This document shows positions 1,967-28,137 of a stretch of DNA of 60,694 nt, piece after piece (position 1 is the stretch's first letter; each line of letters opens with the position of its first letter). Source of the DNA: an uncultured Thermoproteaceae archaeon (GTDB taxonomy: Archaea > Thermoproteota > Thermoprotei > Thermoproteales > Thermocladiaceae). The DNA is taken from positions 1-60,694 of the forward strand of contig CAZNTG010000002.1 of the NCBI GenBank assembly GCA_964575955.1, in the 5' to 3' direction. The notes beneath the pieces were generated by a model, which did not search any database, was not told the DNA's origin, and saw nothing but the letters and a program-made list of their open reading frames with translations. A program made the translations under genes and the position numbers.

Positions 1967-3154
1967 GTGAATGTCAACACAGACATACTAATACTAGGTG
2001 TAGGTACTTCAGGTTCTACATTAGTAAAGTTTCTCAAAGACTTAACATCTGAAAAGACTATAGCTATATGTGACACACGTGTTAATCCATGGACACATGT
2101 AGTATGTGGTGAACTTATTCCTGACCCATCCTCGCTATCAAATATACCGAAAACACTGTTAGAATACATGTATAAAAGTCATAACATAATAATGGAGAAT
2201 ACTAAAATTATTAAAAGCTTTAAAGAGATTAGTATAAAGATATTAGATAGAGAGTTCATAGTTAGATTCAAATCATACATAATAGATAAGAGTGAACTAA
2301 TTAAAAACCTAATAGATAAGAACATTCAATATTATGAAAATTATCTAGGATTTTCAGCATTTTCATATGAAATACATAATGATGGTATTAAGATTATGTT
2401 AAGAAATCGTGATGGAGATATTAAGTATGTAAAAGCTAGATTTGTAATATGTTCAGACTCATTTCCATCAATATTATACGATTCTCAAATCTGGAATTTC
2501 TTAAAAAATTCAAAATATTTAACAATTTCATGCATATCACTTCAAGCAAGACTTTCAAATCATATTGAAAATCCTAAGATAATCATAAATCCTAAAATCG
2601 CACCAGGAGGCTATGCATGGATCTTTCCAAAAGATGAATATATTGCAAATGTTGGTCTTGGTATCAATACAGACTTCATTAATAATATTGTAGAGTACTT
2701 AGATAAATTTTTGAAGATCTACAATTTGAAACCTGTAAGTAGAGTTTTATGTAAGACCTTACCTGTTGATGGTGTCATATATTCAGATAGGTTAGATGTT
2801 GTGTATGTTGGTGATGCTGGTGGTTTTGTTATTCCTACAAATGGTGCTGGTATTAATCCTGCAATAATTTCATCATTAATATTATATGAATCTAATGTAG
2901 ATAGTGAAGTTTTCATAGAAAAATCTTATAATGTTATCGGTAACTTCATTAACAATCTTGCCAGACTTAGAAAACCTTTTGATAAAATTCTTATAGATTA
3001 TTCTAAATTTGAGAGATTTTTCAATAAGTTATTTAGAAGATCTGTGATTAGTAATCTGTCTTGTAGATTGTTATTTAGATTTGTTACTGGTTGTCTAAGC
3101 TTTCTAGATTTGCTCGGTGTTAAGTTTGTTAGTTATCTTAGTGACATTATTTAA
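1967..3154 (+). CDS. Geranylgeranyl reductase family FAD-dependent oxidoreductase
   Basis: GxGxxG (LGVGTSG), CGE, PGGYAWIFPK, VGDAGGFVIPTNGAGI motifs; next to a prenyl synthase. Confidence 0.85.
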   Translation: MNVNTDILILGVGTSGSTLVKFLKDLTSEKTIAICDTRVNPWTHVVCGELIPDPSSLSNIPKTLLEYMYKSHNIIMENTKIIKSFKEISIKILDREFIVRFKSYIIDKSELIKNLIDKNIQYYENYLGFSAFSYEIHNDGIKIMLRNRDGDIKYVKARFVICSDSFPSILYDSQIWNFLKNSKYLTISCISLQARLSNHIENPKIIINPKIAPGGYAWIFPKDEYIANVGLGINTDFINNIVEYLDKFLKIYNLKPVSRVLCKTLPVDGVIYSDRLDVVYVGDAGGFVIPTNGAGINPAIISSLILYESNVDSEVFIEKSYNVIGNFINNLARLRKPFDKILIDYSKFERFFNKLFRRSVISNLSCRLLFRFVTGCLSFLDLLGVKFVSYLSDII

Positions 3155-5873: not shown

Positions 5874-6329
5874 ATGAGTCAGGAACAGTTATCTGAAATT
5901 GAGTTGAAGATATTGATACAACTATACAAATCTGGAGGATCATACATTCAGAGAAACCTATGGAAAGCTATTGGTATTGATGGTAAGACAGGTCTACCAT
6001 ATCTTCTCAAACTTGAGAAGAAGGGTCTTGTTATTAGAGAGAAGATGAGTGATACTAGAAGAGCTCAATATCTAGTTAAGTTAACTCAAGATGGTAGAAA
6101 AATTGTTGAAGAATATATTAAATCAACATCTGCAACACGTAGAGACTATGTTGAGGTCGATTATAGTTTAAAGATTTCAGAACTGTCCGATCATGAGAGA
6201 ATTTTAATAACAATACCATGCCTATACTGTCCATATTTAGAATCTTGTGGTAAAGTTAAATATCTTGATCCAAGTAAGTGCGAACTTCTCTCGAAATGGA
6301 TTTTAAGTAACTTAAAGTCTAGTAGCTAG
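5874..6329 (+). CDS. tfeB: Transcription factor E beta subunit (RPC34-like; wHTH plus Fe-S Cys cluster)
   Basis: N-terminal wHTH and C-terminal PCLYCPYLESC...DPSKCELLSKW four-Cys motif typical of archaeal C34 homologues. Confidence 0.8.
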   Translation: MSQEQLSEIELKILIQLYKSGGSYIQRNLWKAIGIDGKTGLPYLLKLEKKGLVIREKMSDTRRAQYLVKLTQDGRKIVEEYIKSTSATRRDYVEVDYSLKISELSDHERILITIPCLYCPYLESCGKVKYLDPSKCELLSKWILSNLKSSS

Positions 6330-6331
6330 TT

Positions 6332-6892
6332 ATGAATCTACTTAGAGTATTTATTGCAGTAGATATAGTAGATGAGAATATTAAGAAAAATATTGAACTT
6401 ATACAGAAAGAACTACTTAAAGGTGGTGTAGATATTAAACCTGTTGAATTAGAAAATCTACATATAACACTTAGATTTATTGGAGAAGTACCTCAACCTG
6501 TAGTTAATGAAATAATGAATAAGTTGAAGACAGTTACATATCAAAAATTTAAGATTAAAGTTAGAGGTCTTGGAGCATTTCCAAATAATTCAAATCCTAG
6601 AGTTATATGGGCAGGAATTACAGAAGGTTCTAAAGAACTATCAGAACTTCATGAAATTATCGAAAAACTTGTAGGTAAGTATGGTATTAAAGATGATAAA
6701 GAGTTTACACCACATTTAACAATAGCTAGAGTTAGATCTCAAAGAAATAAACAACACATAATTACGATACTAGAGAAGTATAGAGATTTAGAGTTTGGTG
6801 AACAATCTGTAGAATGTATAAAACTTAAGAAGAGTGTACTAACTCCTAGAGGACCGATATATAGTGATTTGTTGGAAGTGAAATTATTATGA
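6332..6892 (+). CDS. thpR: RNA 2',3'-cyclic phosphodiesterase (2H family, LigT-like)
   Basis: Two HxT motifs (LHITL, PHLTI); RVFIAVD start; upstream of cca. Confidence 0.92.
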   Translation: MNLLRVFIAVDIVDENIKKNIELIQKELLKGGVDIKPVELENLHITLRFIGEVPQPVVNEIMNKLKTVTYQKFKIKVRGLGAFPNNSNPRVIWAGITEGSKELSELHEIIEKLVGKYGIKDDKEFTPHLTIARVRSQRNKQHIITILEKYRDLEFGEQSVECIKLKKSVLTPRGPIYSDLLEVKLL

Positions 6893-21578: not shown

Positions 21579-22531
21579 GACTTTATGAAGGTTGTCTAGT
21601 AAAGATTAGAGGAAGAGAAGAGATATTCTATATAAAGGGAATATTTGAAGAAGATGGAAAGTATATAGCATTACCAAGATATATACCACACCCTGAAGGT
21701 AATAGAGTTGATAATAAGGGTAGAAGATTCAAAGTATTGAAAACATATGAAGAACAGATAGAGTATGTATATAGTAAAGTTAGAGAAATTTTAAGATATT
21801 CAAAAATATTTAAAATGAAAATACCAATGATAGATGAAGAATATATAGAGGAAGTATATTACCCAACTGAGAAAACTAGAGAAATATTAAAAAATCAAGA
21901 ATATGAAATCGATAAGGTAATTGTAAAAATAGTTAAAGAATTACAAAAAGATGTACCAATAGAATATATAGGTATATGTGGTTCAAGATTAGCAAATCTT
22001 ACAGGACCTGAACAAGATATCGATATTGTAGTAGTAGATATGAGATATATACAACAGATATTTGAAAGATTGAGAAAATTAAAAACATGTGAGGACTATG
22101 TAATAGAAAGATTGTGTAATTACCATAAAGGATCTCTCAGAATACCATATACAATACTTTACAAGTTATTACGTAGAAGAATACTTGAAAATTCTATAGA
22201 CGGTTACCAATATTTCATAAGGATATTACCAATGATAGATATGAAGCCAATACTGAAATATCATAATGTTGAGAAAATTTGTAGATTATATACACATGTT
22301 AAAATATATGATGAATCTAAACTATCATTTACAAGTCCCTGTATATATTTTGTAGAATCTCCAATTGGAAATATACCACTAATATCTGATAGAGGTATAT
22401 TTTCAGAAACCTTACTATTACTACAAAACTTTAAGGTTAGTTGTGTCTTGGAGTGTGGTATTTTAGAAATATTTAATAATACTTTCGATAAGTGGTTTTA
22501 TCTTGATTCTAAATCATTTATAAGTTTTTGA
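21545..22531 (+). CDS. Nucleotidyltransferase-domain protein (COG1665-like)
   Basis: PRYIPHPEGNR and GICGS...DIDIVV pol-beta NTase motif; start uncertain. Confidence 0.7.
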   Translation: MFNKTSTSSKVRLYEGCLVKIRGREEIFYIKGIFEEDGKYIALPRYIPHPEGNRVDNKGRRFKVLKTYEEQIEYVYSKVREILRYSKIFKMKIPMIDEEYIEEVYYPTEKTREILKNQEYEIDKVIVKIVKELQKDVPIEYIGICGSRLANLTGPEQDIDIVVVDMRYIQQIFERLRKLKTCEDYVIERLCNYHKGSLRIPYTILYKLLRRRILENSIDGYQYFIRILPMIDMKPILKYHNVEKICRLYTHVKIYDESKLSFTSPCIYFVESPIGNIPLISDRGIFSETLLLLQNFKVSCVLECGILEIFNNTFDKWFYLDSKSFISF

Positions 22532-23172
22532 AGTTTTGGCTCTCTTTCTGATAGATGTTTACATATTCTTCTTACATATTCTTTAAATTCTTCACATATA
22601 TCAGTTTTACAATTCTTATATATCAATTCTAGACTATATTTTAGTAGTTTTAAATATCTTCTATATATCTTATACTCAGTATTTGCTATTTTTGTTAAGT
22701 ATACTGCAATATCTATCATATGGTTATATATTCTAGTTAATGGTTCTATTATTAGAAATCTACTAAATGCATCAATATACTCTATCTTCAAATCTACTTC
22801 TATCAAGTTTTTCTTAATATTCTTATTTTCAACTTTAGCTTCAATATATCCCCATATTTCATGTTCAGGTGCTATTCTTGGTGCATTTACTTTATATGCA
22901 TTTACATATCTTATATTTTCATACTCTTCTCTTAATATATCTTTGAATGCTGTTACTATGAATAGCGTTGGATTATATGTTAAGTTTATAACTATGTCAG
23001 GATTTTTATTTTGAAATACTTTAAATGTTCTAGATCCTTCATATATTCTAATCTTGACTTTATCTCTACCTTTTAATTTAAAACCTAGAGGTACTGCATG
23101 TGGAGAATCTTCTAGATAATATGTAATTATTCCTTCATAAAGTATGTCTGGAGAAAGTTTGAGAAAATACAC
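22498..23172 (-). CDS. DUF447 family protein (split-barrel)
   Basis: YEGIIT...PHAVPLG, IYEGSRT, INLTYNPTLF pattern. Confidence 0.7.
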   Translation of the reverse strand: MYFLKLSPDILYEGIITYYLEDSPHAVPLGFKLKGRDKVKIRIYEGSRTFKVFQNKNPDIVINLTYNPTLFIVTAFKDILREEYENIRYVNAYKVNAPRIAPEHEIWGYIEAKVENKNIKKNLIEVDLKIEYIDAFSRFLIIEPLTRIYNHMIDIAVYLTKIANTEYKIYRRYLKLLKYSLELIYKNCKTDICEEFKEYVRRICKHLSEREPKLQKLINDLESR

Positions 23173-23204: not shown

Positions 23205-24806
23205 TTAGTGTTCTAGGACTCCGAAGTATACTGGTATTCCACCTGCCTCTAACATCTTCTTAAATAGTCCTTCTGCAATCTCTGTACCATACTTGCGTTG
23301 GAATAGTAGTTTCCAACCCTTCAATTCTGGATTGGTGTTTAACATGTCTTGTAGTTTGTATAGTATGTTTCTTGCTTTTGTTAGATATGTCTTATTTCCT
23401 GTAACGTTGTATAGCTTTATGTATACTCCTGCAAGTCCTATAAATCCTAGGATGTAGTAGTTTCTATGTGCAACCTCTCTATTACTAAGTACTGGGTGAT
23501 TAATTAGCCATTCTAGATCTTTTATAGCTTTTGCAAATTCCTCCATTGCTTTTGCCTTATTGTGGAAGTATAGGTCTATTATAGCCATGTAGTAGTATGC
23601 TAGTGCTCTCTCATAGTATGCTGCAGGTACTTCTGCAGGATCACCAGGACACTGTATATGGTCAGTCATCTCTTCAGCGTCCTTCTCTAATGCTTTATAA
23701 GCTGTCTTTAGCATACTCATTCCAAGTTCCTTCTTTCCATGCTTAATATACCATATAGCTTCATAGAACTCTATTAAGCTCTTCAATCTACAAGCTTCAC
23801 CATAGTAGTCTGAGCTTGGTCCAAACTTTGTAATTATTTCATTACAGAACTCTGTCGCAATACCCCACCACTTCTCTACACAACTCCAAGTACCATTCTT
23901 ATAGCATGGCCATCCTATGTAGAATGCTGCTACAGCTCCTGGCATTAATCCTAGATCGCTCTCTTCTTTCCAGTGTGTTATGTAGTATTTTGACCATTTG
24001 AAGGTTTCATACCACTTTCCTAAGTCTATTAATGCCCACATTATGTGTTCTACAGCTGTGTCTATTGGGTATAGTTTAATGGACTTCTCATAATACTCTA
24101 CTGCTAGCCATGGTTCTGCCATTGCTAGATATGTTCTAGCAATATTTTGATACACTGCTGCAAGTCCATACTTTCCAGCATACTTCTCAATAACATCCTT
24201 ATACTTCAAAGCCTTGAATAAGTATGGTAGTACTAGCTTCTCTCTACATGTATAATTATCACAGTAGTCGTAGTATATTGCGCCAAGCTGTGCATAGCAT
24301 AGTGGTGCTATATTTGGAAACTTCTTAATACATAGTTCACAGTAGTATACTGCTTTTTCAAAAGCTTCTTGTGCAAGCTTCATCCAATAAGCACCACTGT
24401 AATCTGGAGCGTATGGTCCTGGAATACATTTTCCACGAGTATACTCTTCATACCATGGTATTGCCTGTGTGAATGATGTATCGTTTGGAAGTTTGTAGTA
24501 GTGATGGAAGAATCCATCATTACCATATGCTACACATAGATCGTAATATGCCATTCCTAAGTTTGGATTAAGTTCTATAGCTTTCGTCAAGTTGTTTACA
24601 GCATCGTGAAACCACATCAATGCTTCTTTAGCATTTCCATTACCAAATGCGTCAAGTTCATTATTTATAGCTGCAACTCCCTGTTCAAAATATTTCATTG
24701 CTAAGCTATATTTTGACCATGTTGATGATAGGTATGCTGCTAGTACTCCAATACCTATTATACATAGTATTCCAATAACTATGCATGCTGCAAGTTTACC
24801 TTTCAT
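23205..24806 (-). CDS. Membrane-anchored or secreted TPR-repeat protein
   Basis: N-terminal signal/TM; repeated TPR motifs (KAIELNPNLGMAYYDL, AVEYYEKSIKLYP, AYYERALAYY); Cys/aromatic-rich. Confidence 0.75.
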   Translation of the reverse strand: MKGKLAACIVIGILCIIGIGVLAAYLSSTWSKYSLAMKYFEQGVAAINNELDAFGNGNAKEALMWFHDAVNNLTKAIELNPNLGMAYYDLCVAYGNDGFFHHYYKLPNDTSFTQAIPWYEEYTRGKCIPGPYAPDYSGAYWMKLAQEAFEKAVYYCELCIKKFPNIAPLCYAQLGAIYYDYCDNYTCREKLVLPYLFKALKYKDVIEKYAGKYGLAAVYQNIARTYLAMAEPWLAVEYYEKSIKLYPIDTAVEHIMWALIDLGKWYETFKWSKYYITHWKEESDLGLMPGAVAAFYIGWPCYKNGTWSCVEKWWGIATEFCNEIITKFGPSSDYYGEACRLKSLIEFYEAIWYIKHGKKELGMSMLKTAYKALEKDAEEMTDHIQCPGDPAEVPAAYYERALAYYYMAIIDLYFHNKAKAMEEFAKAIKDLEWLINHPVLSNREVAHRNYYILGFIGLAGVYIKLYNVTGNKTYLTKARNILYKLQDMLNTNPELKGWKLLFQRKYGTEIAEGLFKKMLEAGGIPVYFGVLEH

Positions 24807-24915: not shown

Positions 24916-25467
24916 TTAAGAAGATTTTAAGAATCGTATTACGAATTTTGAAATACCTCTACCAGCATAGTCACCTGCAAGTCCTGATAGGAATGCTAGT
25001 ACTAGCATTACTACACATCCTATAGGCGATATGTATCTATGTATAGCTATGTAATATCCTAGCCAGTTTATTCCTACACATACAACATTTGCAACACCAC
25101 CATTAACAAGTTCTGTCAATATTCCTAATGCTATGAAAGATATCAATCCTACAACACTAAACCAAGATACCTTAACAATACCAAACCATGGACTTGCGAT
25201 TAGGCAGAATGATACTATCATCACAGCCGTTATAAGTCCATACCACCTACCTGCAATTCTATAAGCTAGGGATATCCAAAATACATACCAAAAACCTCCA
25301 AGTACTGGTAATATCTTGAATGGTACTTTAAATGGAAATACTGCATCTAGTATAGGTTTAACATCTATGTACATCGTTAACAGGAAGCTTAAATATGCAA
25401 ATACTATACACAAGACAACTTTTAGAGGTTCAGGAATCCTACCAGAAACACTTTCTACAGATTTCAT
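24916..25467 (-). CDS. Small multi-pass membrane protein, ECF S-component-like
   Basis: About 6 TM segments; GGFWYVF...SPWFG...LGILTELV pattern recalls YkoE-type S components; start overlaps the radical SAM gene end. Confidence 0.55.
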   Translation of the reverse strand: MKSVESVSGRIPEPLKVVLCIVFAYLSFLLTMYIDVKPILDAVFPFKVPFKILPVLGGFWYVFWISLAYRIAGRWYGLITAVMIVSFCLIASPWFGIVKVSWFSVVGLISFIALGILTELVNGGVANVVCVGINWLGYYIAIHRYISPIGCVVMLVLAFLSGLAGDYAGRGISKFVIRFLKSS

Positions 25468-26275
25468 ATTTTCTCATCCTCTTAACAAATTCTATATGTC
25501 TATTTAACATTGTTTTAAAATCTGTTCTAGCATCTCCAAGACATGTATCTGGTCTATCATGTAGGAATACACATGGAAATTGTTTGAAATCCCAAGTTAC
25601 GAATATTGTAAACATTACAACTCTACAAGGTGTTGTATGTTTAATAGGTAGGTATACTTTCTTACCACCAATCTCTTTAACCTTCTTAAACAACTCTTTC
25701 TCCTCTCTCTCACTTATATATTCAATATCTGGATCTACATTATATATGTTGAATAGTCTATGAAGAACTATACCATCAACACCAACATCAATACCAAATT
25801 TAACAATTTCAGGAATTTCTTCTAAACTATCTCTAAATATTGTAACATCAAGATACACTACAGGTCCTCTACCTCTTCTCCTCTTCTCCTTAATAACTTC
25901 CTCAATATTTTGTAATACTTTTTCCTTACCTTTTAATGTGTATATTCCAAATGAAAGTTCATCAAGACCACTTTCAAATATTTCATCAAGTTTCTTATCT
26001 ACAAGTATACCATTTGTACATAGACTAGCTTTCTTTCCAAGACTCTTAACATATCTTATAAAGTCGAATATTTGAGGATGTAGTAGTGGTTCTCCCCAAC
26101 CATGTAGACATATCTCATCGAAATGTTGTAGTGGAAGTTTCTTAAATTCTTCAAAATCCATATAGCCTATAGGTCTATTTAAATGTCTTCTCATACATAT
26201 TCTACATGTCATTATACAGTGATTTGTAGTCTCTACCTGAAGTATTGTTGGTCTAATAATTTTTTGAAGAAACAT
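25439..26275 (-). CDS. Radical SAM protein with C-terminal SPASM/twitch-type domain
   Basis: CIMTCRIC (CxxxCxxC), GWGEPLLHP, TNG; C-terminal C-x17-C ... CRKC. Confidence 0.9.
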   Translation of the reverse strand: MFLQKIIRPTILQVETTNHCIMTCRICMRRHLNRPIGYMDFEEFKKLPLQHFDEICLHGWGEPLLHPQIFDFIRYVKSLGKKASLCTNGILVDKKLDEIFESGLDELSFGIYTLKGKEKVLQNIEEVIKEKRRRGRGPVVYLDVTIFRDSLEEIPEIVKFGIDVGVDGIVLHRLFNIYNVDPDIEYISEREEKELFKKVKEIGGKKVYLPIKHTTPCRVVMFTIFVTWDFKQFPCVFLHDRPDTCLGDARTDFKTMLNRHIEFVKRMRKYEICRKCFW

Positions 26276-26323: not shown

Positions 26324-26536
26324 CTATCTCACAAAGAGCTTAGCTATAGCTGTCTTTATAGCCATGGATATTCTTGGCGTTACTGTCTTAATCATGTTTA
26401 GTAGTGTTGATCTAAATCCAAGTACTAGTGCTGCAACAACTCCAAATGCTCCAAGTGTTTGACTTAGATACCATGCCTGCAGTGTACTTGCTGTTAACAC
26501 TACATGTAGTGTTGTAACTGACACTGGAGCACACAT
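26324..26536 (-). CDS. Small membrane peptide with MCAPVSVT N-terminus
   Basis: 70 aa; hydrophobic core then basic tail; immediately upstream of and co-oriented with the radical SAM gene; paralogous N-terminus in the divergent ORF. Confidence 0.65.
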   Translation of the reverse strand: MCAPVSVTTLHVVLTASTLQAWYLSQTLGAFGVVAALVLGFRSTLLNMIKTVTPRISMAIKTAIAKLFVR

Positions 26537-26676
26537 AGCTATCGACTTAGAACTATGTTAGCTGATATAAAAACTTTCCTAAATATAGAAATGTTAAGTA
26601 TTACTCAGGGTAAAATCTTTACGTAATAAGGAAGATAGAAATCCTTATTAATTAGTCAGGGTTAGACTAGGACAGT

Positions 26677-26847
26677 ATGTGTACGCCAGTATATGTCACA
26701 GTTAAGACAGCAGCATCAGCAGTACCAGTAGTACACTATATAGCAGGAATAATACTACTAGCAATAGGAGCAGCAGCAAGCTTCTTCGCAGCTTTCAGAT
26801 TAAAAAGACATATATCAGCAGTAAAGACACAAGCAGTAAAATCATAA
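26677..26847 (+). CDS. Small membrane peptide with MCTPVYVT N-terminus (not in ORF track)
   Basis: Hand translation MCTPVYVTVKTAASAVPVVHYIAGIILLAIGAAASFFAAFRLKRHISAVKTQAVKS (56 aa); strong A bias at third codon positions; TTATTAA upstream and T-rich tract downstream. Confidence 0.7.
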   Translation: MCTPVYVTVKTAASAVPVVHYIAGIILLAIGAAASFFAAFRLKRHISAVKTQAVKS

Positions 26848-27017: not shown

Positions 27018-27107
27018 TGGCGCCGGGGGTGGGATTTGAACCCACGCCCCCTGTACGGGGACGGGATCTCAAGTCCCGCGCCTTGGGCCTGGCTCGGCCA
27101 CCCCGGC
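27018..27107 (-). tRNA. tRNA-Ser(UGA)
   Basis: Full cloverleaf: CGGGA CT TGA GA TCCCG, long variable arm, encoded CCA. Confidence 0.97.
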
Positions 27108-27146: not shown

Positions 27147-27305
27147 TTACTTTGCTCTATACTTCTTTGGTCTTAAATTCTTACTTTTACATCTTCTACA
27201 TTTTTCAGCTCTTGGCGGATTTCTTGCTCCACATTTTCTACATATTAAGTAGTTGAATCTGTGTTCTAGCGCTATTCTAAGCTTCTCTGGGTCTGTTATT
27301 GGCAT
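27147..27305 (-). CDS. rpl40e: 50S ribosomal protein L40e (not in ORF track)
   Basis: Hand translation [52 protein letters not shown]; [10 protein letters not shown]...CRRC...LRPKK signature. Confidence 0.95.
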
Positions 27306-27396: not shown

Positions 27397-28137
27397 GTGC
27401 AGGCTAGATCTAGACTTAGTAGAGCATCTCTACAGTTTGAAGCTGTTGAACTTCTCAATATTGCACGTAGTCTTCTCAAACTTTCATATAGAGAGCTTAG
27501 TGAAATTACAGGTTTTCAAGAGAGTGTATTGTGTAGATATGCTAATGGTGATCTACTACCGTCACCAGAGACAGCTCTTCAAATAATTTCTAAATTAGAA
27601 CCAATACTATCTTTAGAAAATGTGTTAAAGAGACTTATAAAAATATATGAAAATTATGTAGATTTTGGAAAGATAGTTACAAATAGTGACATACTTAAAC
27701 TATATGCAAGAAGAGTACGTTCACTATTTCAAGAATATAACATAACTAAAATCTTAACAGCAGCAACAGACGGTGTACCACTTGCAGTATCTGCAGCATT
27801 AATGTTAAATGCTGATTTAGCAGTTGCAAAACAGTATAGAGATGTATTTGAAGATGACTTCTATGAAGCAACATATATAATGGAAAGTCCACCAAGAAAA
27901 GTTACACTATACGTCCCAAAGTCATTATTAAGTAAGAATGATAGAGTACTAATTGTTGATGACATAGTCAGGACAGGTAGAACAATTGGAGCATTAATAG
28001 ACATATGTAGACAAGCTGAAGCACAGATAGTTGGCATATCTATACTAATAGCATTTGGAACATCATGGCTAAGAAAGATATCTGATATTAATGCAAAAAT
28101 AGATGTTGTACTCTACTTACAAAACTATGCCATATAA
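27397..28137 (+). CDS. HTH plus phosphoribosyltransferase-domain protein (PurR/Apt-like)
   Basis: SYRELSEITG...LCRYANG..LPS HTH; VLIVDDIVRTGRT PRPP-binding motif. Confidence 0.85.
   Translation: MQARSRLSRASLQFEAVELLNIARSLLKLSYRELSEITGFQESVLCRYANGDLLPSPETALQIISKLEPILSLENVLKRLIKIYENYVDFGKIVTNSDILKLYARRVRSLFQEYNITKILTAATDGVPLAVSAALMLNADLAVAKQYRDVFEDDFYEATYIMESPPRKVTLYVPKSLLSKNDRVLIVDDIVRTGRTIGALIDICRQAEAQIVGISILIAFGTSWLRKISDINAKIDVVLYLQNYAI

Follow-up and report, generated by a model that had tools for sequence, protein, structure and literature searches.

Small Met-Cys-x-Pro membrane peptides, a radical SAM enzyme and a predicted S-component-fold protein in a widespread cassette of anaerobic archaea and bacteria

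The window analysed here is a stretch of 60,694 nucleotides (nt) from an uncultured Thermoproteaceae archaeon (contig CAZNTG010000002.1, positions 1 to 60,694), in which two short genes, named here pepA and pepB, stand head to head beside the gene of a radical S-adenosylmethionine (SAM) enzyme. The first-pass annotation of this DNA had treated the pair of peptides as the unit, which has to be widened to a cassette of 4-5 genes. The features of the cassette in the window are the following, with lengths in amino acids (aa).

23205..24806, minus strand: tetratricopeptide repeat (TPR) protein, 533 aa, with one N-terminal membrane anchor and TPR hits in Pfam
24916..25467, minus strand: polytopic membrane protein, 183 aa, with the predicted fold of an energy-coupling factor (ECF) S component, overlapping the end of the radical SAM gene by 29 nt at its start
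25439..26275, minus strand: radical SAM enzyme, 278 aa (PF04055, 52.1 bits against a cut-off of 29.5)
26324..26536, minus strand: pepA, type-A peptide, 70 aa, beginning MCAPVSVTTLH, stop codon included
26537..26676, both directions: divergent promoter region, 140 nt, from the alignment of six congeners
26677..26847, plus strand: pepB, type-B peptide, 56 aa, beginning MCTPVYVTVKTA (start MCTPVYVT), stop codon included

The two peptides are built on one plan, pepA leading from its MCAPVSVT motif through an uncharged linker into a single membrane segment, an FR dipeptide and a basic tail, and pepB repeating this order with the motif MCTPVYVT and a linker that contains proline. Coordinates and translations confirm the head-to-head arrangement reported at first, with 140 nt between the two ATG codons (26537-26676) and 6 identical residues among the first 8. 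The best 19-aa Kyte-Doolittle (KD) window reaches 1.86 from residue 28 in pepA and 2.37 from residue 22 in pepB, each peptide carries 5 K/R and 0 D/E on the C-terminal side of its membrane segment with 0-1 K/R on the N-terminal side, and the hydrophobic segment, FR and basic tail described earlier for each peptide are borne out by these values. For neither gene is there an in-frame ATG, GTG or TTG between the start and the preceding stop (the frames read “DS” and “HSSKSIA”). When the genome (1,521,267 bases, 33% G+C, 15 contigs) was scanned in six frames with the loose pattern C-x-P-[VIL]-x-[VIL]-[TS], 16 matches were obtained, and only pepA and pepB among them had a preceding Met and a following membrane segment. 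The strict start motif matched 2 times in the genome versus 0 times in the reversed genome sequence, and no other open frame beginning Met-Cys-x-Pro-Val-x-Val-Thr was found in the 1.52 Mb. The peptides had been described as otherwise diverged, and BLASTP of pepA against pepB indeed gave no alignment, a result superseded by the profile-profile comparison of the type-A and type-B families (96.9% probability, expectation value (E) 1.4e-10, 41 columns). pepA and pepB are thus paralogues, two types of one family, rather than unrelated peptides sharing a tag.

Whole-genome searches for the peptides in 40 relatives found pepA and pepB as a divergent pair in 5 of the 6 genomes of the window's genus (64-84% identity for pepB, 53-74% for pepA), diverged versions of both in the sixth congener (G005), and nothing convincing in other genera of the order. 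In these congeners the frames stay open at 51-70 aa. Over the six congeneric orthologues (15 pairs), codons 2-12 of pepA show 62 synonymous versus 8 non-synonymous differences, a ratio of non-synonymous to synonymous change (pN/pS) of 0.055, and those of pepB show 51 versus 0; pN/pS for the remainder of the gene is 0.44 in pepA and 0.49 in pepB, the N-terminal 11-12 residues being fixed and the tails drifting. The earlier suggestion of a functional site in the short conserved motif is supported by these counts, according to which selection on codons 2-12 is near-absolute. Because synonymous changes accumulate and the residues stay fixed, it is the amino acids of the tip that are constrained, rather than any promoter DNA overlapping them. 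G005 has the genes in a different order, as a single co-linear string (pepA-like, enzyme, membrane protein, pepB-like), and the linkage between peptide and enzyme therefore survives rearrangement. The same genome carries a second, slightly different pepB-like copy on another contig (L018, G005:C120, ~6074-6576), apart from the cassette and adjoining what appears by eye to be a tRNA gene, which suggests that the type-B gene can move or duplicate independently.

Far beyond the genus, 201 homologues of the enzyme at E 1e-10 or better were found in a set of 5.8 billion proteins, including those of Methanocaldococcus (51-55% identity), Methanothermococcus, ANME-1 and Nanoarchaeota. A scan by the enzyme of one genome per species gave 105 relatives, the best 80 of which (L028-L107) were kept and underlie all locus counts given here; these loci were collected via radical SAM homologues, without reference to the peptides. 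As assigned from record titles, 65 are archaeal (Thermoproteota, Archaeoglobaceae, Methanocaldococcus, ANME-1/Methanophagales, Methanosarcinales, Altiarchaeota, Hydrothermarchaeota, Bathyarchaeota, Thermoplasmata and others) and 15 bacterial (Dehalococcoidia, Desulfobacteraceae/Thermodesulfobacteriota, Latescibacterota and Thermacetogenium among them). That such peptides might be found beside homologous radical SAM genes elsewhere had been put forward in the first-pass annotation as its own test, and they are present in 75 of the 80 loci, which encode 1-3 peptides each of 45-76 aa starting M-C-[AVTSL]-P (112 in total, 111 unique). In 73/80 loci a peptide encoded on the strand of the enzyme starts upstream of it at a distance below 700 nt, and strict matches across the loci numbered 110 versus 0 in reversed DNA.

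The consensus tip of the 111 peptides is M-C-A-P-[V/I]-S-V-T and the motif of the family M-C-[A/T]-P-[V/I]-x-V-[T/S], with frequencies that are partly built in, since the pattern used for collection left no freedom at C2 and P4 and a limited choice at positions 3 and 5-7; C2 and P4, which that pattern already required, are invariant in the alignments of both types. Position 6 varies among S/A/Y/T/E, position 7 among V/A/I/T and position 8 among T/A/S, and the 8-residue motif as a whole is nearly unchanged from Thermoproteota to Dehalococcoidia. A membrane segment with a window of KD 1.6 or more is present in 104 of the 111, and one peptide below that value (L081, at 8171, KD 1.21) is probably a false match. 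The mean net charge is +0.17 over the first 20 residues and +3.07 over the last 15, which fits the earlier proposal of an outer-face Cys tip (N-out). Of the two paralogous types, here divided by a rule of thumb, type A usually adjoins the enzyme, and type B, with proline in its linker, lies in tandem upstream in Methanocaldococcus and divergently in Thermoproteota and Archaeoglobaceae. Bacterial peptides, usually the sole peptide of their locus, have two extra Cys in a G-C-x-G-x-C between tip and membrane segment (L068, L075, L077, L089, L090, L094, L098, L099, L101, L103 and L106).

Might the two open reading frames (ORFs) be due to chance, or belong to a divergent promoter whose non-coding DNA is conserved? 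Both are short and flank a promoter region, and pepB falls below the usual 60-aa cut-off. Yet synonymous changes accumulate under fixed residues, the frames remain open in the congeners, the family recurs in two domains of life and reversed DNA gives no match, so that this explanation is refuted as far as sequence data can do so and we give it next to no credence. On the same evidence the peptides are real, selected and enzyme-linked genes.

Five loci stand outside the count of 75. The contig of L084 starts inside a peptide and the peptide of L087 runs into masked N, whereas in L058 and L066 the enzyme occurs without a peptide in the DNA examined, a point to which we return below. These last two are ANME-1-type loci whose regions upstream of the enzyme share similar translated stretches; in the related loci L060, L073 and L079 the peptides lie 2.5-4.5 kb downstream, each after a TPR gene. 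In L092 (Thermacetogenium) no membrane peptide was found, the motif being present only on a non-membrane ORF beside the TPR gene. This ORF of 84 aa (2811-3065, MISVCVPISVAIQ...), which clustered with the TPR family and precedes the TPR gene, may represent either what is left of the motif or a fusion of it.

In the alignment of the six congeners, TTATTAA at 26645-26651, 26-32 nt before the pepB ATG, is invariant, and TTTTTATA on the minus strand at 26566-26573, 30-37 nt before the pepA ATG, marks an A/T box that is partly conserved. From the known geometry of archaeal promoters, we infer that both are TATA boxes of near-leaderless transcripts. Over the whole family, a Shine-Dalgarno-like core lies 4-17 nt upstream of 81 of the 111 peptide starts, versus 13.6% of all ATGs in the same loci, and thus places initiation at the Met preceding the Cys; the Thermoproteota copies have conserved A/T boxes at TATA distance in place of such a core. 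In Methanocaldococcus sp. 28A (L038, 3473-3652 and 3687-3854), both frames can be extended by five codons to an upstream TTG, the added part being the GGAGGTGA ribosome-binding site, identical for both genes and situated 5-12 nt before the real ATG, so ORF callers may assign a wrong N-terminus to such peptides.

The radical SAM gene has pepA directly upstream on the minus strand. Its CX3CX2C motif (C20/C24/C27) is invariant in 23 sequences, as are four further Cys near the C-terminus (C217, C235, C273 and C276), which would be enough for one auxiliary cluster of the twitch-like kind. The SPASM model PF13186 reaches 18 bits on the window's protein, below its cut-off of 21.5, and is precomputed on many homologues. 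In the predicted model (pLDDT 91.5), the first strand spans residues 11-14, the cluster motif residues 20-27 and the core begins at ~10; alignment and model show no N-terminal recognition or peptide-binding domain and no room for one before the core. The structural neighbours of the model are BlsE, CteB, SkfB, DesII, SuiB, viperin, PqqE, anSME, MoaA, BtrN and EpeE, with TM-scores of 0.75 for the Cys-directed peptide maturases CteB and SkfB and 0.71 for anSME (4k36), and since these belong to the SPASM/twitch group, the enzyme probably does too. Within this group, function cannot be read from similarity, according to PMC6231123. A sequence search of the PDB gave core matches only (BlsE, NifB, Tes, BtrN, MoaA and SkfB). 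The best NCBIfam match, TIGR04317 for tungsten-cofactor maturases (E 1.7e-30, residues 12-251), scores 106.3 bits, far below the cut-off of 380, and membership was rejected; no aldehyde oxidoreductase gene lies beside the radical SAM gene in the window. A predicted complex of the enzyme with two 4Fe-4S clusters, SAM and residues 1-30 of pepA gave scores of 0.69, 0.02 and 0.03 and is given no weight on either side of the question of binding.

A small ORF placed immediately upstream of the gene for a SPASM/twitch radical SAM enzyme is the customary layout for peptides that are made on the ribosome and modified after translation (RiPPs), and maturases of RiPPs are among the structural neighbours of the enzyme. 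One could therefore read the peptides as precursors of classical secreted RiPPs or bacteriocins whose product is released. Against this, what is conserved in them is the extreme N-terminus, the place of a variable leader in RiPPs; the motif starts at residue 1-2, no recognition domain is present on the enzyme, whose cluster motif lies at 20-27, and neither the clustering of the loci nor the census of their neighbours showed a recurrent protease, exporter or PqqD-like gene. Membrane segment and basic tail are kept throughout (104/111 at KD 1.6 or more), and a motif nearly constant from Thermoproteota to Dehalococcoidia is unlike the cores of natural products. Release of a product is thus a very improbable fate for these peptides. 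The resemblance to SkfB and to CteB with its SCIFF peptide is closer in that a small Cys-containing ORF adjoins the enzyme, and SkfB, which shares the best TM-score, is a twitch enzyme, as the cassette enzyme probably is. Those enzymes bind a leader through an N-terminal recognition domain, as stated in PMC6231123, whereas the cassette has neither leader nor such a domain, and its peptide stays anchored in the membrane with a motif conserved across phyla.

Anaerobic sulfatase-maturating enzymes (anSME) act on a Cys/Ser-x-Pro/Ala-x-Arg motif of the sulfatase and hold their auxiliary clusters with 7-8 C-terminal Cys. Here too the candidate target would be a short motif beginning Cys-x-Pro, to be served, as with anSME (described in PMC5682303 and PMC6231123), by an enzyme without a separate leader-binding domain, here one probably of the SPASM/twitch group. 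Several differences set the cassette apart: anSME has ~370 aa and two auxiliary clusters (PMC5682303), while the cassette enzyme has 278 aa and four invariant C-terminal Cys only. None of the 111 peptides has an Arg at +4, position 6 being S/A/Y/T/E, and the candidate target is residue 2 of a membrane peptide of 50-70 aa, rather than an internal site in an enzyme. The cassette enzyme was accordingly not assigned to sulfatase maturation.

The Cys of the tip admits another interpretation, which we consider improbable, namely that it is a site of lipid attachment or of a covalent cofactor and that the peptide ends as a doubly anchored or cofactor-carrying membrane protein. By the rule of methionine aminopeptidases, a Met1 before Cys is probably removed, and Cys2 would then become the N-terminal residue. 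The enzyme gives weak matches, far below cut-off, to the hidden Markov models of the lipid-acting Tes (E 6.3e-5) and of the tetrapyrrole enzymes NirJ, AhbD and AhbC (E 1e-9 to 6e-4), and the S-component fold is one that binds small organic ligands. But the matched profile ranges span only the shared radical SAM core, and Methanocaldococcus, which carries the cassette, is to our knowledge not known to make haem. As for a lipoprotein Cys, there is no signal peptide or lipobox before it, the Cys being residue 2 with no in-frame start upstream.

The gene on the other side of the enzyme encodes the 183-aa membrane protein, a homologue of which lies directly downstream in 57/80 loci (58 by clustering). 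Its AlphaFold model (pLDDT 93.2) has six core helices. VIA-align of 48,161 chains placed ECF S components in all of the 14 best positions, led by 5edl (Z 14.6, root-mean-square deviation 3.4, 155 aligned), then ThiT (11.9), PanT, FolT, RibU, BioY and NikM2 (9.3), with unrelated chains from Z 7.2 down; Foldseek likewise placed 5edl first (E 0.015, TM 0.55), and structure rows of the ESM Atlas gave TM 0.63-0.67. On the strength of the model, the protein is predicted to have the fold of an S component. No S-component sequence family in Pfam or NCBIfam matched the window's protein, and for the family as a whole no meaningful model was found (best E 0.0083; 36 members searched in Pfam, the window's copy in both); PF09819 was touched by only 2/36 members, at E 0.66. 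These 36 representatives, at E 0.001 or better, came from 1.84 billion proteins. The protein occurs in 5/61 other genomes of the order, all within the window's genus, and the idea that it is genus-specific was abandoned when the wide scan showed a patchy spread across phyla. No EcfT or EcfA component is encoded in the window's cassette; a CbiQ gene lies elsewhere in the genome, on contig C10. In L091 (2034-2630) and L100 (4828-5310), from Methanosarcinales/Methanophagales, a gene for a SpoIIM-family membrane protein follows the radical SAM gene directly (PF01944, E 3e-21 for L091; the L100 ORF is 86% identical to that of L091), and in L100 an S-component-like gene is present elsewhere in the locus.

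The remaining proteins are predicted to face outward or to be exported. Homologues of the TPR protein occur in 37/80 loci; TPR_1 is weak on the window's copy (27.3 bits against a cut-off of 27.8) and strong on the L098 member (E 1.8e-30). Matches to LanC/LanM in Pfam and NCBIfam (E 0.013-0.015) were rejected, as Atlas and PDB return TPR proteins only. The N-flank of the anchor is more positive than the C-flank in 28/32 family members, which predicts an outward-facing TPR domain. In 34/80 loci there is a gene for an FmdE-domain protein (PF02663) whose N-terminus is signal-like, and by flanking charge these FmdE proteins look exported (28/28). The window's genome has a 457-aa FmdE-domain protein with hydrophobic anchors at both ends on contig C9 (L108, 844-2217), far from the cassette. 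As judged from its genes, the cassette is made up of the peptide or peptides, a radical SAM enzyme probably of the twitch type, a membrane protein of predicted ECF-S fold and an anchored TPR protein that probably faces outward, to which many lineages add an apparently secreted FmdE-domain protein.

Among the neighbours of the 80 loci were 264 non-core ORFs of 110 aa or more, 230 of them within 3 kb, and 139 of the nearest 150 were scanned, the other 11 being dropped by hand (antisense to core genes, very long, or near-duplicates). The commonest extra Pfam families in these 139 proteins were DUF4198 (6), ABC_tran (4) and CbiM (3), and the census also gave ArsR-type HTH_5 (3, tied with several other families) and FUR (2). 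DUF4198 and CbiM genes directly follow the cassette in 4/80 loci of at least two lineages (L045; L071/L078/L091), and in L071 CbiQ comes after them in turn, with NifH-family and CbiX genes preceding the cassette. The contextual link to nickel or cobalt that this provides is weak.

These metal genes, together with the S-component fold, lead to a rival explanation in which the peptides are not substrates at all. They would be trans-acting subunits of the S-component-like protein, each supplying from outside a conserved N-terminal loop whose amine and Cys2 thiolate bind a thiophilic metal (perhaps nickel or cobalt) in the pocket that holds the ligand of vitamin-type S components. What NikM/CbiM have as an additional N-terminal helix with a Met1-His2 loop would here come from a separate chain, while the enzyme would act elsewhere, for example on the imported species or on a cofactor. 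The alignment of the 183-aa protein with NikM2 (4m5c, Z 9.3) starts at chain residue 29 and that with CbiM (5x3x_M, Z 7.2) at residue 32, in both cases without the extra first helix. In NikM, according to PMC3945884, that helix gives an extracellular N-terminus whose first 9 residues are conserved and insert into the centre of the protein, the amine of Met1 and His2 binding Ni, and function relies on additional small membrane proteins (NikN or NikK/L). The peptides have the topology of this helix and eight conserved first residues, the bacterial ones carry the added G-C-x-G-x-C, and DUF4198-CbiM genes adjoin some cassettes and head the neighbour census. Nevertheless, this metal context concerns only 4/80 loci, several of which are closely related. 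In fold the S-like protein comes nearest to the vitamin-type S components (YkoE, ThiT, PanT) and not to NikM/CbiM; PF01891 (NikM/CbiM) does not match it, no His or Cys is invariant in its family, and it has six helices instead of seven. Helix and loop would here be separate polypeptides with a Met-Cys instead of a Met-His start, and their Met1, unlike that of NikM, would probably be removed. No fusion of a peptide to the S-like protein was found among the 36 representatives from 1.84 billion proteins, seven longer ones having been inspected for a motif start. The radical SAM enzyme, whose gene has the tightest linkage, would have no part to play. We therefore rank this explanation second, as possible but clearly on the unlikely side.

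What we favour, and would give an even chance, is that the enzyme acts directly on the N-terminal Cys-x-Pro and that the N-out tips then work with the S-like, TPR and FmdE proteins. The tip is proposed as the target since its linkage to the enzyme withstands rearrangement, since it is the sole strongly selected part of the peptides and since the enzyme probably belongs to a class that tailors Cys peptides; direct binding is proposed since both leader and recognition domain are absent. Each peptide would be translated from the Met directly before the Cys, and the cytoplasmic enzyme would recognise the Cys-x-Pro N-terminus in its active-site barrel, in need of neither leader nor recognition domain, much as anSME handles its own motif beginning Cys-x-Pro. 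It would then modify the Cys or a neighbour, the candidates being Cys oxidation, an intramolecular thioether to a backbone carbon, and epimerisation of the Val/Ile beside it. As none of the acceptor positions is invariant, no choice among the three can be made. Four Cys can ligate a twitch cluster fully, BtrN being an example, and the auxiliary clusters of BtrN and anSME are thought to oxidise the radical intermediate by taking an electron (PMC6231123); electron uptake by such a cluster would fit oxidation or thioether closure. After modification, the short uncharged N-terminus may be translocated, giving an N-out, C-in peptide as the charges suggest. At the outer face the tips would act together with the S-component-like, TPR and FmdE proteins, a partnership suggested by gene linkage and fold, and could provide a thiol-based or modified-Cys binding site.

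Several observations weigh against direct action of the enzyme on the tip. Only C2 and P4 are invariant and no fixed crosslink acceptor residue stands out, the nearest curated model (TIGR04317) describes a cofactor maturase and not a peptide maturase, and the structural neighbours of the enzyme are generic for the SPASM/twitch group. The enzyme is cytoplasmic and the motif predicted outside, so that modification would have to precede insertion. L058 and L066 have the enzyme and no peptide in the DNA examined. Moreover, the enzyme served as bait for the loci, and the census therefore cannot separate dependence of the peptides on the enzyme from dependence on the membrane protein.

Perhaps the two functions are joined. 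Two tips, with amine and thiolate and possibly tailored by the radical SAM enzyme, might reach into the S-like protein and form a new kind of site for a metal or cofactor outside the cytoplasm, a thiolate counterpart to NikM's Met1-His2 site fed by the outward-facing FmdE and TPR proteins. We hold this combination to be doubtful, and less probable than the peptides serving as metal-site subunits by themselves. If true, it would be a device for high-affinity uptake of nickel, cobalt or a related thiophilic species in sulfidic, hot and anoxic habitats, and it would account both for the retention of two peptides with the same tip and for the extra Cys in the single-peptide versions of bacteria.

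Around the cassette of the window, a tRNA-Ser(TGA) gene (27018-27107, minus) adjoins pepB, followed by a 52-aa zinc-ribbon protein that by eye resembles ribosomal protein L40e (27147-27305, minus) and by a protein combining a helix-turn-helix with a phosphoribosyltransferase domain (27397-28137, plus). On the other side lies a DUF447 protein (22498-23172, minus) common only to three close relatives. None of these three protein genes seems to be related to the cassette.

Radical SAM enzymes that have a small peptide encoded next to them are a known kind of system. What is unusual here is that the functional motif begins at residue 2, that there is no leader and that the peptide remains a membrane protein, and the partners are unusual as well, namely a protein of S-component fold together with TPR and FmdE proteins that probably face outward. 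The peptides match no Pfam or NCBIfam model at a meaningful level, scans with 38 type-A members (Pfam and NCBIfam) and 27 type-B members (NCBIfam) giving only scattered hits at E 0.0026 or worse. No description of the peptides or the cassette was found in the literature by a word-matching search without supplements, which other wording may escape. The cassette is widespread in anaerobic archaea and bacteria and apparently undescribed, and the combination of an S-component fold, known from vitamin and metal uptake, with peptide partners and a radical enzyme turned up neither in a curated family nor in the papers searched. Genes for proteins of 45-76 residues are routinely missed: the search with the family profile retrieved only 38 called proteins among 5.8 billion, annotated as “hypothetical”, yet 75/80 loci encode them. 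For radical SAM enzymology the cassette is a clean test case, with a short enzyme, one predicted auxiliary cluster, no recognition domain and a candidate substrate motif of eight residues, a tip that is easy to synthesise and assay. Carriers of the cassette include methane-cycling archaea (ANME-1, Methanocaldococcus), sulfate reducers and Dehalococcoidia, so its role may matter for the economy of trace metals or cofactors in anoxic sediments and vents.

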